Below, in pieces: positions 21,105 to 24,439 of a stretch of DNA of 45,582 nt. Source of the DNA: Bacillales bacterium (GTDB taxonomy: Bacteria; Bacillota_I; Bacilli_A; RFN20; CAG-826); contig JAEEWP010000002.1 of the NCBI GenBank assembly GCA_016287465.1, forward strand, positions 1 through 45,582, in the 5' to 3' direction. Both the position numbers and the translations under genes were made by a program. Under the pieces are notes generated by a model. That model had not been told where the DNA came from and made no database searches. It was given only the letters and a program-made list of their open reading frames with translations. Position 1 is the first letter of the stretch, and each line of letters begins with the position of its first letter.

Positions 21105-22712
21105 ATGAAGAAGTTCTGGAGAACCGTCACATCACCGAAGCTCTTATTCGCTATTCTCATCATCCTTGAGATATTCCTCATCGTCGGAGGATATATCTTC
21201 CTTGATTCCTATCTCGCCGTCGTACTTGAAAGCGAGGTCGAGAATGCCGAAAACCTTGCTGACTTCATCAAAATCCTCGTCGTCCTTATCTTCAGGGTCG
21301 CTTTATCGATCGTCGCCTTAGTGGTCTTCTTCAAGATCATCAACCGCGAGGAGAACCCGGAATACAAGATCCCTTGGATCACCTTCCTTTTCCTCTTCCC
21401 TGCCATCACCCTCACCTTCTACTTCGTCTTCGTCCGTGTCCGCATGAGAAGGAAGGACGCGAAGATCGTCGTCCCGACCATGAAATACCTTGATAATAAA
21501 GCCAAGGAACACGCGGATATCGAAAAGGCCAATGAAGAAGAAATAGAGCCGAATTGCCGGGGAATTTTCCATTATCTCCACGAAACGACAAGGCTTTTCA
21601 CCTCGAAAAACAATAGGCTGACCTACTTTAAGAACGGTGAGGAATTCTTCCCTTCTCTTATTGAAGATCTCAAGAAAGCCAAGAAGTTCATCTTCTTAGA
21701 GTTCTTCATCATCGCCGAAGGCAAATGGTACAAGAAGACCCTTGAGGTCCTTAAAGAAAAAGCCAAGGAAGGCGTCGATGTCAGGATCATCTTTGATGAC
21801 ATCGGCTGCAATAGAACCATCCCAGGCAACTTCGTCCATAAGCTCAAGAAGATGGGAATCACCGCTTATCCTTTCCATCCGATCACCCCAATCCTCTCTA
21901 ACCTCATCAATAACAGAGACCACCGCAAAATAGTTATCATTGACCATCAGATTGGCTATACGGGCGGCATGAACCTCGCGGATGAGTACGCGAACGACAA
22001 GAAGAGATTCGGATACTGGAAAGACACGATGATCAAGATCGAAGGCGAAGGCATCAAAGACCTCATCGTCACCTTCCTTCAGAACCACGACTTATGCACC
22101 CACAAGATAACGGATTATTCGATCTTCACCAAAGGTGATGATTATCCTCATTTCGAGGATAAAGGCGCTGCGTTCTTCTTTGGTGACACCCCTGGGCCAT
22201 ATGACGATAATGAGCAAGTCGGTGAGCAGAATTACATCAACATGCTGAGTGTCGCCACAAAGAGGGTTGATATATCAACTCCATACCTCATTTGCACATA
22301 TCCTCTTATCAGAGCGCTTCAGAGTGCGGCTAAGCGTGGCGTTGAGGTCAATCTCATCGTCCCAGGCATCCCAGATAAGAAGATCGTCTACTGGATGGCC
22401 AAATGCCAGTTCCATCTCTTCCTTGAAAGCGGAATCCATGTTTATACATACACGCCTGGCTTCAACCATCAGAAAGGCATGCTTGTCGATGATAAAGTCG
22501 CCTGCGTTGGCACGATCAACTTCGATTTCAGATCTTTGACCCACCACTTCGAGGATGCGATGGTCATATATGACGCACCGTGTTTGAGGGATATCAAAAA
22601 AGACTTCGAGGAGATGATCAGTGTCTCCAAGAAAGTCCCTGTCGATTTCAAGGCGAACGCTTTCCAGAGATTCGTTTCTGGGGTCTTTAAGATCTTCCGC
22701 GTTCTCTTGTAG
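21105..22712 (+). CDS. cls: Cardiolipin synthase
   Basis: 535 aa with two N-terminal TM helices and two PLD HKD motifs (HRKIVIIDHQIGYTGGMN and HQKGMLVDDKVACVGTIN). Confidence 0.95.
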   Translation: MKKFWRTVTSPKLLFAILIILEIFLIVGGYIFLDSYLAVVLESEVENAENLADFIKILVVLIFRVALSIVALVVFFKIINREENPEYKIPWITFLFLFPAITLTFYFVFVRVRMRRKDAKIVVPTMKYLDNKAKEHADIEKANEEEIEPNCRGIFHYLHETTRLFTSKNNRLTYFKNGEEFFPSLIEDLKKAKKFIFLEFFIIAEGKWYKKTLEVLKEKAKEGVDVRIIFDDIGCNRTIPGNFVHKLKKMGITAYPFHPITPILSNLINNRDHRKIVIIDHQIGYTGGMNLADEYANDKKRFGYWKDTMIKIEGEGIKDLIVTFLQNHDLCTHKITDYSIFTKGDDYPHFEDKGAAFFFGDTPGPYDDNEQVGEQNYINMLSVATKRVDISTPYLICTYPLIRALQSAAKRGVEVNLIVPGIPDKKIVYWMAKCQFHLFLESGIHVYTYTPGFNHQKGMLVDDKVACVGTINFDFRSLTHHFEDAMVIYDAPCLRDIKKDFEEMISVSKKVPVDFKANAFQRFVSGVFKIFRVLL

Positions 22713-22761
22713 CTTCCTTACATTGTTGCCAAATATCTAGATGGTAGGTTAAAATACAAAA

Positions 22762-22812
22762 GAGTCCTCGCGAGTACTATTATGGCATTAACATCTCGAG
22801 GCTCTTTTTATT
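22762..22812 (+). terminator. cls terminator (hairpin of repeat copy 1)
   Basis: GAGTCCTCG...CGAGGCTC stem followed by TTTTTATT, 50 nt after the cls stop codon. Confidence 0.7.
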
Positions 22813-22872
22813 ACTATAAGTCACTCATATAAGGCATATTCACTTTGTAAACAATCGAGTTATAATAAGACC

Positions 22873-22932
22873 ATAAGAACGGAGTCCTCACAAGCACTTT
22901 ATGGTTGTTGTCTTAGGAGGCTCTTTTTTATT
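22873..22932 (+). ncRNA. Candidate small RNA, unit 2 (about 60 nt)
   Basis: TTCACT (22839..22844), a 16-nt spacer, then TATAAT (22861..22866). A hairpin GAGTCCTC...GAGGCTC and TTTTTTATT follow. There is no coding potential conserved between the copies. Confidence 0.35.
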
Positions 22933-22992
22933 ACTATAAGTCGCTCATATCAGGCATATTCACTTTGTAAAAATTCGAGTTATAATAAGACC

Positions 22993-23052
22993 ATAAGAAC
23001 GGAGTCCTCGCGAACACTTTAATGGAGTTAGTTGTGAGGCTCTTTTATTTTA
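22993..23052 (+). ncRNA. Candidate small RNA, unit 3 (about 60 nt), with a 3' end overlapping the convergent small ORF
   Basis: Identical promoter-like box (TATAAT at 22981..22986). A 13-bp hairpin GAGTCCTCGCGAAC...GTTGTGAGGCTC is followed by TTTTATTTT. Confidence 0.35.
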
Positions 23053-23134
23053 CTAGCCAGGCCAATAAGGATAATAAGAGACAAATCAGAGCGATCTTAA
23101 GAAGGCTTGCGTCTTCTTTTTGAAGGTCTTTCAT
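23045..23134 (-). CDS. Hidden small ORF, 29 aa, hydrophobic (MKDLQKEDASLLKIALICLLLSLLAWLVK)
   Basis: Below the ORF-track length cutoff. The ATG is preceded by GAGGTG at 7-nt spacing. It has a single predicted TM helix and its stop codon lies inside the T-run of repeat unit 3. Confidence 0.4.
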   Translation of the reverse strand: MKDLQKEDASLLKIALICLLLSLLAWLVK

Positions 23135-23244
23135 TGGACATCACCTCGCTTTCTGTGCTGAGATTGCGAGGGCCCGTTCCGAGTTTTAACGGCTTTGCTT
23201 TGCCACTTTACATATAGTGGCGATTTTCTATTTTTTCAGGAAAA

Positions 23245-23278
23245 CACAAAAAAGCGCCTCCCCTTTTGAGGGAAGCGC
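23245..23278 (-). terminator. Rho-independent terminator after esterase paralog 3
   Basis: Minus strand GCGCTTCCCT-CAAAA-GGGGAGGCGC followed by TTTTTTGTGTTTT. Confidence 0.85.
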
Positions 23279-23296
23279 CATATAGGAGCGATTTAC

Positions 23297-24376
23297 TTAG
23301 TCAAGAAGGTTGTTATCAAGGATAACTTTGCCATAGGCCATGCCTAAGCGGAGGCTGCTCTTGACGTTATAGTGCATGTTGTCGCCACCAGGGTTGCCAG
23401 GTTTGAGCTCGTTCTCAGCGGTTGGCTCTTCGTTGCCATAGATGTCGACGATGTAGTTGTTGTCGGCGCTGTCAGCGAATTCCTGTTTGACGGCGTTCAT
23501 GTCTTTGGAGGTCTGGGCGCCCCAAGCTGTGCCGCTTCCCTGATAGATCATGCCATCGACGAAGGCGATGTTCTCGCCATCCTGGTCTTTGGCATATTCA
23601 GCGAAGTCGGTTCTGAAGAGTTCGACCATATCACCAAGGCGTTGCTTATATTTGGCGATCTTCTCGGTCGCGGAATCAGATTCGCCCTGATGCCATAACC
23701 AGCCTTTGATGACTGGATGCCAGCCTTCATCTTCGATGAGTTTGAGGTTGTTCTCGATGAATGGCTTGCAGAAAGTGTGGTACATGTTGATTTCTGGCCA
23801 ATTGCCTTCTGCATCTTTGACTGGCCAGTTGTAGTCGGTTCCGCTTTGTTCGAAGCCGCTGCCACCGGAAGCCATTTTGATGAAATAGATTGGCTTTTCG
23901 GCGGTAGCCTCATCCTTTAAGGCATAAGCCATGCCAAGCTCTGGACCCATCTTGGAGGAGTTAAGACCCATACCGGTTTTGGTTGGGAGGAACTTGCCTT
24001 TGAACCTCTCGGTGGTGTTCGTGGCGTTGACCTGGGTGTTGCCATCGAGGTTGTTGTGGTTAAGCTGACCATAGCCGGCGCAGTAGAGAGAAGTCTGGAC
24101 GGATTCGACGCCGGTCTCGGTTAAGACCTCTGGATCCTCAAGACCCATCTCTTCGAAGGCCTGGGCGATGTAGTCGGTGCTTCCGCTCTTGAAGGAAGTG
24201 TTTCCTTCCATGTTGGATTGACCGGATAAGACGAAGACGTTGACTGCGAGTTCGTCAACTTCTGGTTCGCTGGTTCCCGCTGGCTGTGAGGATGATCCTG
24301 CTGGTGGGGTGCAGGAAGCTAATCCCATGGCGAAAAGAAGCGCGGATAAAGACATTAGTTTGTTAAAGCGTTTCAT
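23297..24376 (-). CDS. SASA/CE6-type (GQSNM) carbohydrate O-acetylesterase lipoprotein, paralog 3
   Basis: Start reassigned to MKRFNKLM (ATG at 24376, SD AGGAGA). Lipobox LASC. Blocks VFVLSGQSNMEGNT and WLWHQGESD. Confidence 0.8.
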   Translation of the reverse strand: MKRFNKLMSLSALLFAMGLASCTPPAGSSSQPAGTSEPEVDELAVNVFVLSGQSNMEGNTSFKSGSTDYIAQAFEEMGLEDPEVLTETGVESVQTSLYCAGYGQLNHNNLDGNTQVNATNTTERFKGKFLPTKTGMGLNSSKMGPELGMAYALKDEATAEKPIYFIKMASGGSGFEQSGTDYNWPVKDAEGNWPEINMYHTFCKPFIENNLKLIEDEGWHPVIKGWLWHQGESDSATEKIAKYKQRLGDMVELFRTDFAEYAKDQDGENIAFVDGMIYQGSGTAWGAQTSKDMNAVKQEFADSADNNYIVDIYGNEEPTAENELKPGNPGGDNMHYNVKSSLRLGMAYGKVILDNNLLD

Positions 24377-24410
24377 AATTTCTCCTAATTTGAAAAAATC
24401 ACTTTCCGTT

Positions 24411-24439
24411 ATTTTAAGCAAATCGTAAATTTTCTACAA
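24411..24439 (-). promoter_or_regulatory. Candidate sigma-A promoter of esterase paralog 3
   Basis: Minus strand TTGTAG (24439..24434), a 17-nt spacer, then TAAAAT (24416..24411), about 35 nt upstream of the ATG. Confidence 0.5.

Follow-up and report, generated by a model that had tools for sequence, protein, structure and literature searches.

The stretch of DNA considered here (the window) comprises 45,582 nucleotides of contig JAEEWP010000002.1 from the assembly GCA_016287465.1 of a Bacillales bacterium. Its spacer 22713..23296 (584 bp) holds a small module: a 29-codon open reading frame (ORF) on the minus strand and three small-RNA (sRNA) units on the plus strand. The ORF (23134..23045, stop codon 23047..23045) encodes the peptide MKDLQKEDASLLKIALICLLLSLLAWLVK, with a polar N-terminus, a single transmembrane (TM) helix and a C-terminal lysine. 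The sequence and the list of ORFs confirm that it is opened by the ATG at 23134, as had been proposed from the letters alone (below, the sequence-only reading), and that the Shine-Dalgarno (SD) sequence GAGGTG lies at 23147..23142, 7 nt upstream of the ATG. The stop codon TAA is indeed situated inside the T-run of the third plus-strand unit, whose hairpin occupies 23002..23042. Comparison with related genomes indicates that the locus is one copy of an unannotated, previously undescribed family of tiny membrane-peptide genes. We consider it probable, at about 0.68, that the module is built like a type I, that is, antisense-RNA-controlled, toxin-antitoxin system.

The anatomy of a family unit was derived by reading one array and aligning the units. 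In the direction of the peptide gene, a unit consists of a promoter, a 4-bp hairpin with the loop AAAGNAAA, the linker UUAAAACUC, the segment GGAACGGAG (denoted X), a CCUCNN/NNGAGG hairpin holding the SD sequence, and the start codon (ATG, TTG or GTG), followed by an ORF of 25-29 codons ending with TAA, an A-run, a hairpin and the segment CUCCGUUCUU. The sRNA gene begins about 20 nt beyond this 3' segment of the mRNA on the opposite strand, and is transcribed through AAGAACGGAG and the shared hairpin into a run of 4-8 U located over the ORF stop codon.

Taken by itself, the ORF is not beyond chance, since 86 ORFs of 20 aa or longer fall wholly or partly within the 6 kb around it; its significance comes from the comparison with relatives. 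In five syntenic relatives of the same genus the ORF is kept intact, 29 aa long and 72-100% identical, and both the SD sequence and the ATG are retained in spite of indels between them. The sequence-only reading would have been contradicted by an ORF broken in close relatives with the repeats persisting; the ORF is intact in all five, and each of these loci has two or three plus-strand units (3, 3, 3, 2 and 2 sRNA genes per single ORF among loci L002-L005 and L019). In the family as a whole, the ORF is intact in 82 of the 90 non-redundant units; it has exactly 29 aa in 50 of them and 27 or 25 aa in most others. The stop codon is TAA in 74 and TGA in eight of them; the start codon is ATG in 56, TTG in 18 and GTG in eight, and the weak starts, 26 out of 82, were counted in favour of the type I reading.

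The coding test used 45 different sequences from the family, each coding for 29 aa. Between them, the mean pairwise differences at codon positions 1, 2 and 3 are 0.43, 0.26 and 0.54, and the synonymous share of single-base codon differences is 59% in frame vs. 27% and 13.5% off frame, with 25% expected under random mutation. These values indicate that the ORF is a protein-coding-type sequence under purifying selection. The claim of a small peptide with one TM helix is upheld, with selection at the protein level throughout the family. The consensus of 41 distinct peptides is M-K-D-x-x-K-E-x-L-K-L-L-K-I-A-L-I-C-L-L-L-[SCA]-L-[LI]-[AG]-L-L-x-[KR]. It describes a polar head, then one Leu-rich TM helix and finally a basic C-terminus; Cys18 and Leu23 do not vary. 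Scans of six family peptides against Pfam and NCBIfam (E up to 10) gave no credible match, and an exact look-up of ten family peptides among approximately 15 billion predicted proteins found none of them.

Several peptide sub-types are seen, and different sub-types alternate inside single arrays. A 27-aa sub-type, MKQFKEFK..CLLLCL..KLA, occurs at loci L033, L036 and L041-L044, a 25-aa sub-type, MEPLKK.., at L020, L035 and L059, and a Cys-less sub-type, MKVNKET..IIDLV..ELIR, at L038, L040 and L053, while 38-aa forms starting at an in-frame upstream ATG are found at L026 and L028. In eight units (L065, L020:1751, L034, L057:5362, L095, L035:2010, L040:1748 and L043:1728) the ORF has been lost by frameshift, start loss or deletion; most of them retain the sRNA gene, and they look like decaying modules.

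The predicted cognate antisense RNA is encoded by sRNA unit 3 (22981..23050, plus strand), with the -10 box TATAAT at 22981..22986 and the predicted RNA spanning roughly 22992..23050 (about 58 nt). The -10 box is a perfect TATAAT in all 76 distinct copies of the family sRNA gene and is TGn-extended in 58 of them; the median length of the predicted sRNA is 57 nt. Folding of 72 sRNAs gave, in every case, a hairpin that ends 0-1 nt before the 4-8 U. In the window, the hairpin at 23002..23042 is shared by both strands: the plus strand uses it as the terminator of sRNA unit 3, and the minus strand as the 3' hairpin in the peptide mRNA. It is flanked by the U-run 23043..23050 on the plus strand and by the A-run containing the stop codon on the minus strand. 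A test for tuning of the shared hairpin to one of the strands showed none (-11.2 vs. -10.9 kcal/mol, p=0.35). At the level of gene features, the convergent, 3'-overlapping antisense gene of the sequence-only reading is supported by its perfect -10 box and its intrinsic terminator over the ORF stop.

The 5' end of the sRNA, ACCAnAAG, and CUUnnUGGU, the loop of the terminator in the same RNA, are complementary (22992..22999 with 23017..23026 of the plus strand in the window). This pairing is specific for the cognate ends (4.56 vs. 4.08 of six pairs, 0 of 2000 permutations), and the wobble count of the helix, 25 G.U vs. 22 A.C, favours neither strand. It would correspond either to a pseudoknot in the sRNA or to a mirror pairing in the 3' tail of the mRNA. 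The loop carries the almost invariant motif ACUU, which is similar to a YUNR U-turn. At locus L019, one of the sRNA copies has its hairpin interior deleted (GAACGGAGAGGCTCTTTTT).

The co-occurrence of the two genes was assessed using nhmmer profiles over 81 related loci. A convergent sRNA gene is found at the expected distance for 118 of the 121 leaders, and the three leaders without it all have a destroyed ORF; hence these loci contain no intact ORF without an sRNA. Conversely, 24 sRNA genes have no leader and ORF of their own, and each of them is situated beside a complete module. Judging by these profiles, the peptide gene is passed on only together with an sRNA gene, and additional sRNA copies are tolerated. 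Such asymmetry would be expected if keeping the peptide required the RNA and spare sRNA genes were harmless.

The leader of the peptide mRNA starts with a 5'-terminal hairpin, UGGC-AAAGCAAA-GCCG (23205..23190, minus strand), which the sequence-only reading had overlooked. In 48 aligned leaders its stem covaries (GAC/GUC, GUC/GAC or GGC/GCC, with CG, UA, AU or UG as the outer pair), and the loop is almost invariant. It is followed by the single-stranded linker (23181..23189, minus strand), whose heptamer AAAACUC (23181..23187) is invariant in 48 out of 48 aligned leaders. The SD-sequestering hairpin (23142..23171, minus strand) is formed by the anti-SD CCUCGC (23171..23166) and GCGAGG (23149..23144), separated by a 16-nt apical part, so that GAGGUG lies inside its 3' side. 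This stem had been noticed in the window; in the family it occurs as CCUCGC/GCGAGG, CCUCAC/GUGAGG, CCUCGU/ACGAGG and CCUCC/GGAGG, with covariation at two inner pairs and in the apical helix. In the predicted fold of the leader alone, the SD hairpin forms at -20.3 kcal/mol.

Taken together, the leader stems (the 5' hairpin, the anti-SD:SD stem and the apical helix) have 93.3% of cells paired vs. 78.3% in column shuffles (0 of 500), the significance of such shuffle tests being overstated, since the sequences are related. When the partner is slid by 1-3 columns, 32-50% of cells are paired; the covariation score is 0.447 vs. 0.195. Hence the structured 5' untranslated region (UTR) with an occluded SD sequence, suggested for the window, is borne out by the covarying anti-SD stem.

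The two additional upstream hairpins of the sequence-only reading do not withstand the comparison. For CCGUU/AACGG, 223 of 500 shuffles are as good, and one of its pairs is formed in just 21 of 48 sequences; it was rejected because it does not covary, and it also competes with the real 5' hairpin at 23205..23190. The other, GCCACU/AGUGGC, likewise has no support as an RNA structure: it covers the putative -10 box, overlaps the 5' arm of the true 5' hairpin, and is present only in the six close relatives, where it is invariant. Followed by TTTTCTATTTTTT, the same element scores as an intrinsic terminator of the plus strand (23200..23236), and this candidate terminator could halt antisense read-through from the sRNA array beyond the ORF and the leader.

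As regards the promoter of the peptide mRNA, solitary units and the first units of other arrays have a clear one, TTGNNN-17-TATAAT-N5-hairpin, and the most frequent site of -10-like hexamers, 11 nt before the hairpin, is shared by 18 units. At the position matching other family promoters, the window has a weak candidate (23211..23239, minus strand) with the -35 box CTGAAA (23239..23234), a 17-nt spacer and the -10 box TATATG (23216..23211), 5 nt from the 5' hairpin; in relatives this -10 box reads TATATA. Accordingly, CTGAAA-17-TATATG is a candidate promoter of the peptide mRNA. The sequence-only reading had seen no convincing promoter for the ORF; the candidate occupies the family position, but it is weak. 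The conserved leader segment GTTAAAAC was also tried as a -10 box and rejected: the hairpin upstream of it covaries as RNA, it ends with C instead of T, and promoters that are clear exist further upstream.

The third conserved element connects the two ends of the mRNA. The leader arm X, GGAACGGGC in the window (23172..23180, minus strand; family consensus GGAACGGAG), was recognised by its covariation with the 3' arm X', CUCCGUUCU (22996..23004, minus strand), which directly follows the 3' hairpin and is the complement of AGAACGGAG, the 5' segment of sRNA unit 3. The X:X' helix is 9 bp long. It has 92.3% of cells paired vs. 82.5% in shuffles (0 of 500), and 42-67% when the partner is slid by 1-3 columns. 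Two-sided changes are observed at six of the nine pairs, and cognate arms pair at 8.31 of nine positions vs. 7.42 for permuted ones (0 of 10000). Examples of co-varying arms are GGAGUGGAG with CUCCGCUCU, CUCCACUCU or CUCUACUCU; GGAACGAAU with AUUCGUUCU; GGAACAGAG with CUCUGUUCU; GGAGCCAAA with UUUGGCUCU; and GGAACGGGU with ACCCGUUCU. The imperfect cells contain 50 G.U vs. nine A.C combinations, and therefore the pairing is selected on the mRNA strand and not on its complement. The alignments thus indicate that the 5' hairpin, the anti-SD:SD hairpin and the X:X' pairing are all maintained by compensatory changes.

Structure modelling is consistent with this arrangement. Minimum-energy folds pair the leader with X' in 71 of 73 modelled full-length mRNAs, and in about 60% of units the modelled helix extends to 14-22 nt by taking the anti-SD arm. 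In the window, the predicted X:X' duplex has -23.7 kcal/mol, and the fold of the mRNA (23207..22990), long-range helix included, -55.0 kcal/mol; in the model, the local SD hairpin reappears once the 3' end is shortened by 10 nt or more. According to partition-function modelling, the mean unpaired probability of the SD sequence and the start codon is 0.247 as long as only the nascent leader exists, 0.286 once the full-length mRNA is free, and 0.211 if its 3' part is blocked as it would be by the sRNA (0.267, 0.415 and 0.276, respectively, for the unit of the window). In the free state, relative to the 3'-blocked one, accessibility is higher by more than 0.1 in 32 units and lower in three (p=3e-6).

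These elements may be combined into the following scheme. The minus strand would yield an mRNA of about 215 nt with a protective 5'-terminal hairpin, the invariant A-rich linker, the segment X (GGAACGGAG plus the anti-SD CCUCNN), the SD-hiding hairpin, the 29-codon ORF, the 3' hairpin and, finally, X' (NNGAGG-CUCCGUUCU). The plus strand would yield a strongly promoted sRNA of about 57 nt, an exact antisense of the 3' hairpin and X'. Being antisense to X', the sRNA is a same-sense copy of the leader arm X, and therefore the sRNA and the leader would compete for X'. The local hairpin presumably keeps the SD sequence closed during transcription; once completed, X' would pair with X and, in most units, capture the anti-SD arm, loosening the ribosome site. 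Abundant sRNA would bind the single-stranded 3' tail and the hairpin first, taking X' from the leader, so that the SD sequence stays locked. Binding may start from the complementary single-stranded tails and perhaps from the conserved ACUU loop motif, and the resulting duplex of about 57 bp would be an RNase III substrate. Should the supply of the sRNA stop, the peptide would be made and the membrane damaged.

That the antitoxin acts in this way, by leader mimicry in competition for X' and not by masking the ribosome site, is a tentative suggestion, and we rather doubt it than favour it. If it is true, pairing of X' with the leader frees the SD sequence and turns translation on, whereas the sRNA, taking X', lets the leader refold and turns it off, so that an RNA of about 57 nt bound approximately 200 nt from the start codon would control a translational switch. 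Direct pairing of the sRNA with the 5' UTR or the SD sequence was considered as well and rejected, as the predicted duplex is only slightly more stable than that of a shuffled sRNA (-27.0 vs. -23.6 kcal/mol).

The other two plus-strand units of the window may be viewed in the same light. The three units are spaced by 120 bp, and in each of them a promoter-like site is combined with a hairpin and a T-run. Unit 2 (22861..22930; -10 box 22861..22866; RNA roughly 22872..22930) is an ORF-less extra copy of the repeat family D1 (93% identity, nhmmer E=1e-14), in which the first 20 nt at the 5' end are identical to those of unit 3 and the hairpin interior differs. Unit 1 (22726..22810) is a diverged copy with a promoter-like TTGCCA-18-TAAAAT (22726..22755) and a hairpin with a U-run (22762..22809); it lacks GAACGG and has a weak nhmmer match (E=0.0015). 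In both, the promoter and the terminator are kept, and so is the X segment, wholly or in part; the hairpin interiors differ. The predicted duplexes have -111 kcal/mol for unit 3 and -49 kcal/mol for unit 1 with the modelled mRNA, and -70.6 kcal/mol for unit 2 with the mRNA 3' end. This fits units 1 and 2 being extra competitor copies; under the mimicry mechanism, the ORF-less sRNA genes, keeping only the X segment, would be pure competitors. Three sRNA genes for one peptide gene would provide an antitoxin excess.

Overall, the module has the features of the type I class: a small hydrophobic ORF, within the 20-60 aa usual for such proteins, an overlapping antisense gene and three covarying cis elements that would limit premature translation. 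The type I toxin-antitoxin-like layout claimed for the window agrees with every sequence-level expectation, and does so family-wide. Several points weigh against the type I interpretation. The peptide-mRNA promoter of the window is weak, with four of six consensus matches in each of its hexamers. No pairing partner was found for the invariant AAAACUC, which may serve for ribosome standby or as a site for an RNase or a protein. The shuffle tests, as said, overstate significance. In about one third of the units the modelled X:X' helix is just 8-9 bp and the local SD hairpin is left intact, and hence the translation switch is not universal in silico. Formation of X' requires the mRNA to run about 8 nt beyond the 3' hairpin, where the tail CGUUCUU is a poor U-tract. 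Finally, the modelled change in accessibility is modest.

The hallmarks of type I toxin mRNAs are an SD/anti-SD pairing, a 5' stem-loop, a terminator and a long-distance 5'-3' interaction, and in Gram-positive type I families the antisense RNA lies on the 3' side (PMC8594479). In Bacillus subtilis, binding of SR4 at the bsrG 3' end extends the SD sequestration from 4 to 8 bp and promotes decay (PMC3834814). The systems bsrG/SR4, txpA/RatA, bsrE/SR5 and yonT/SR6 of B. subtilis, like the module described here, combine a small hydrophobic peptide with a convergent, 3'-overlapping antisense RNA; in bsrG, too, the SD sequence lies in a double-stranded region, and the proposed dual action of the sRNA resembles that of SR4 on bsrG (PMC3834814). 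However, the likeness to txpA/RatA and bsrG/SR4 pointed out by the sequence-only reading does not extend to sequence: neither the peptide nor the RNAs have homology to them by Pfam, NCBIfam or Rfam, and what matches is the layout alone. Further, unlike in the B. subtilis systems, the peptide of the family has 25-29 aa, is polar at the N-terminus and has its TM helix at the C-terminal side; the sRNA is just about 57 nt long and copies the leader; and the mRNA has a 5'-3' pairing in which the sRNA targets the 3' arm. The family members are tandemly arrayed in uncultured rumen Bacilli and do not reside on prophages.

In the par system (Fst/RNA I-RNA II) of the Enterococcus faecalis plasmid pAD1, pairing of the two RNAs at their 5' ends relies on direct repeats in the DNA. 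As in par and the Fst/Ldr group, here the convergent RNAs have one bidirectional hairpin, and there is a 5' stem-loop, a sequestered ribosome site and a peptide of about 30 aa. On the other hand, the repeat in this family is inverted, and therefore the 5' part of the sRNA is identical to the leader, not complementary to it. Thus, the analogy with par/Fst drawn earlier extends to the bidirectional hairpin and no further: direct repeats do not make the 5' ends complementary, as the sRNA carries a same-sense copy of the leader. The peptide, too, differs from Fst: it has no match to the Fst model and shows the opposite polarity, with the charged end first and the TM helix last.

In hok/Sok and aapA/IsoA, a long-distance interaction joining the 5' end of the mRNA to its 3' end governs access to the ribosome site (PMC8594479). 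The likeness is in this 5'-3' interaction of the toxin mRNA, represented here by a 9-bp helix with compensatory changes and wobble asymmetry. In hok/Sok and aapA/IsoA, the end pairing locks the mRNA, trimming of the 3' end makes it active, and the antitoxin attaches to the 5' region or to that of the ORF; in our case, the antitoxin covers the 3' arm, opposite the mRNA 3' end, and the folding models suggest that end pairing loosens the SD region rather than locks it. There is no peptide homology to Hok or AapA by Pfam. In sum, the comparisons indicate that the module is no member of the par/Fst, bsrG/SR4, txpA/RatA, hok/Sok or aapA/IsoA families. It would represent a new type I toxin-antitoxin-like family, in which the antitoxin probably targets the 3' arm of the end-to-end pairing of the mRNA.

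To our knowledge, a few dozen type I toxin-antitoxin families have been described, almost all in cultivated Proteobacteria and Bacillota. Genes of such systems are too small for gene callers. If the type I interpretation holds, uncultured, small-genome rumen Bacilli carry multi-copy modules of this design, in which features so far described separately, the 3'-overlapping antitoxin of the Gram-positive style and the 5'-3' mRNA closure of the hok/aapA style, are united. The family is also a natural set of about 90 variants, with the RNA elements mapped by compensatory changes. Competition by leader mimicry, if true, would make the module a compact and portable RNA switch, and its peptides, with a Cys that never varies within a Leu-rich helix, would form a novel class of very small membrane-active proteins.

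The family has a patchy distribution. In the source genome (1.27 Mb, 96 contigs) the module is single, with one leader and ORF and three sRNA units, and about six species of the window's own genus carry it. Out of 301 genomes belonging to the same taxonomic family, 55 have the leader and the ORF according to blastn; they represent 15 of 48 genera. The covariance model of the leader, R1, matches 35 of 401 genomes of the order, all from one taxonomic family, and the leader of the window (23207..23129) scores 78 bits. An exact-pattern scan of one genome for each of 185,579 species yielded 51 loci, 48 of them in metagenome-assembled genomes of rumen or gut Bacilli, titled 'uncultured Erysipelotrichaceae' or 'Bacilli bacterium', with goat, sheep, buffalo, yak, deer and cattle as hosts. 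The pattern matches in Pyrinomonadaceae, Sulfuricellaceae and Metabacillus are due to chance, having only 18-24 bits with R1. The setting is chromosomal: the modules are located between ordinary genes, at differing sites in different genomes, frequently as tandem arrays, usually of 2-6 units with a period of 240-260 nt. The module was not found in IMG/VR viral contigs, INPHARED phages or PLSDB plasmids. The Rfam 15 scan of both strands of 22400..23600 (E up to 10) produced noise and no credible match, and a literature search for this family found no description.

Among the alternatives, the one that survives best, unlikely as we consider it, is a harmless small membrane protein, a subunit or a regulator of some complex, tuned by a cis-antisense RNA and a folded leader. 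Conservation of Cys18, Leu23, Lys13 and Glu7 goes beyond simple hydrophobicity and could mean a specific partner, and the loci lie between chromosomal housekeeping genes, not on phages or plasmids. However, patchy occurrence (about six species of the own genus; in the order, 35 of 401 genomes), arrays in which diverged paralogues stand in tandem and which lie at different places of the chromosome, occasional decay of the ORF, an obligatory antisense gene with solo antisense copies tolerated, and layered repression fit a selfish or addictive module better than a housekeeping subunit.

Far less probable is that the sRNAs themselves are the functional product, acting in trans via the CCUC anti-SD motif, with the ORF mRNA being mainly a sponge or a target. 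The 24 solo sRNA copies, the C-rich anti-SD-like motif and a promoter much stronger than that of the mRNA could be explained in this way. On the other hand, the ORF is clearly under selection at the protein level, solo sRNAs always adjoin a complete module, the CCUC motif is buried in the terminator stem, and the sRNA:5' UTR duplex, as given above, gains only slightly over shuffled sequences. Still less credible is a miniature inverted-repeat (MITE-like) mobile element, with X and X' as terminal inverted repeats for a transposase and the ORF incidental: although X and X' do form an inverted repeat of about 16 bp around a unit of about 170 bp, and the copies are intergenic at varied sites, there are 1-6 copies per genome, tandem rather than dispersed, the ORF is under coding selection, the sRNA promoter and terminator are conserved, and departures from the repeat are G.U-compatible on one strand (50 vs. 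nine A.C), which points to RNA pairing and not to protein-DNA recognition. As for a chance ORF in a spacer beside sRNA repeats, which the 86 ORFs counted around the locus might suggest, it is refuted by the conserved length, by the start codon and SD sequence kept despite the spacer indels, and by the synonymous excess.

The spacer holding the module is flanked by a cardiolipin-synthase-like gene (21105..22712, plus strand) and, on the other side, by a GQSNM-esterase lipoprotein gene (23297..24421, minus strand), the terminator of the latter being at 23279..23253. Within arrays of other genomes (e.g. L021:929..1030), a spacing of exactly 13 nt often separates the sRNA -10 box of one unit from the 5' hairpin of the unit that follows, and therefore the divergent promoters must overlap in one AT-rich box (ATTATA/TATAAT).

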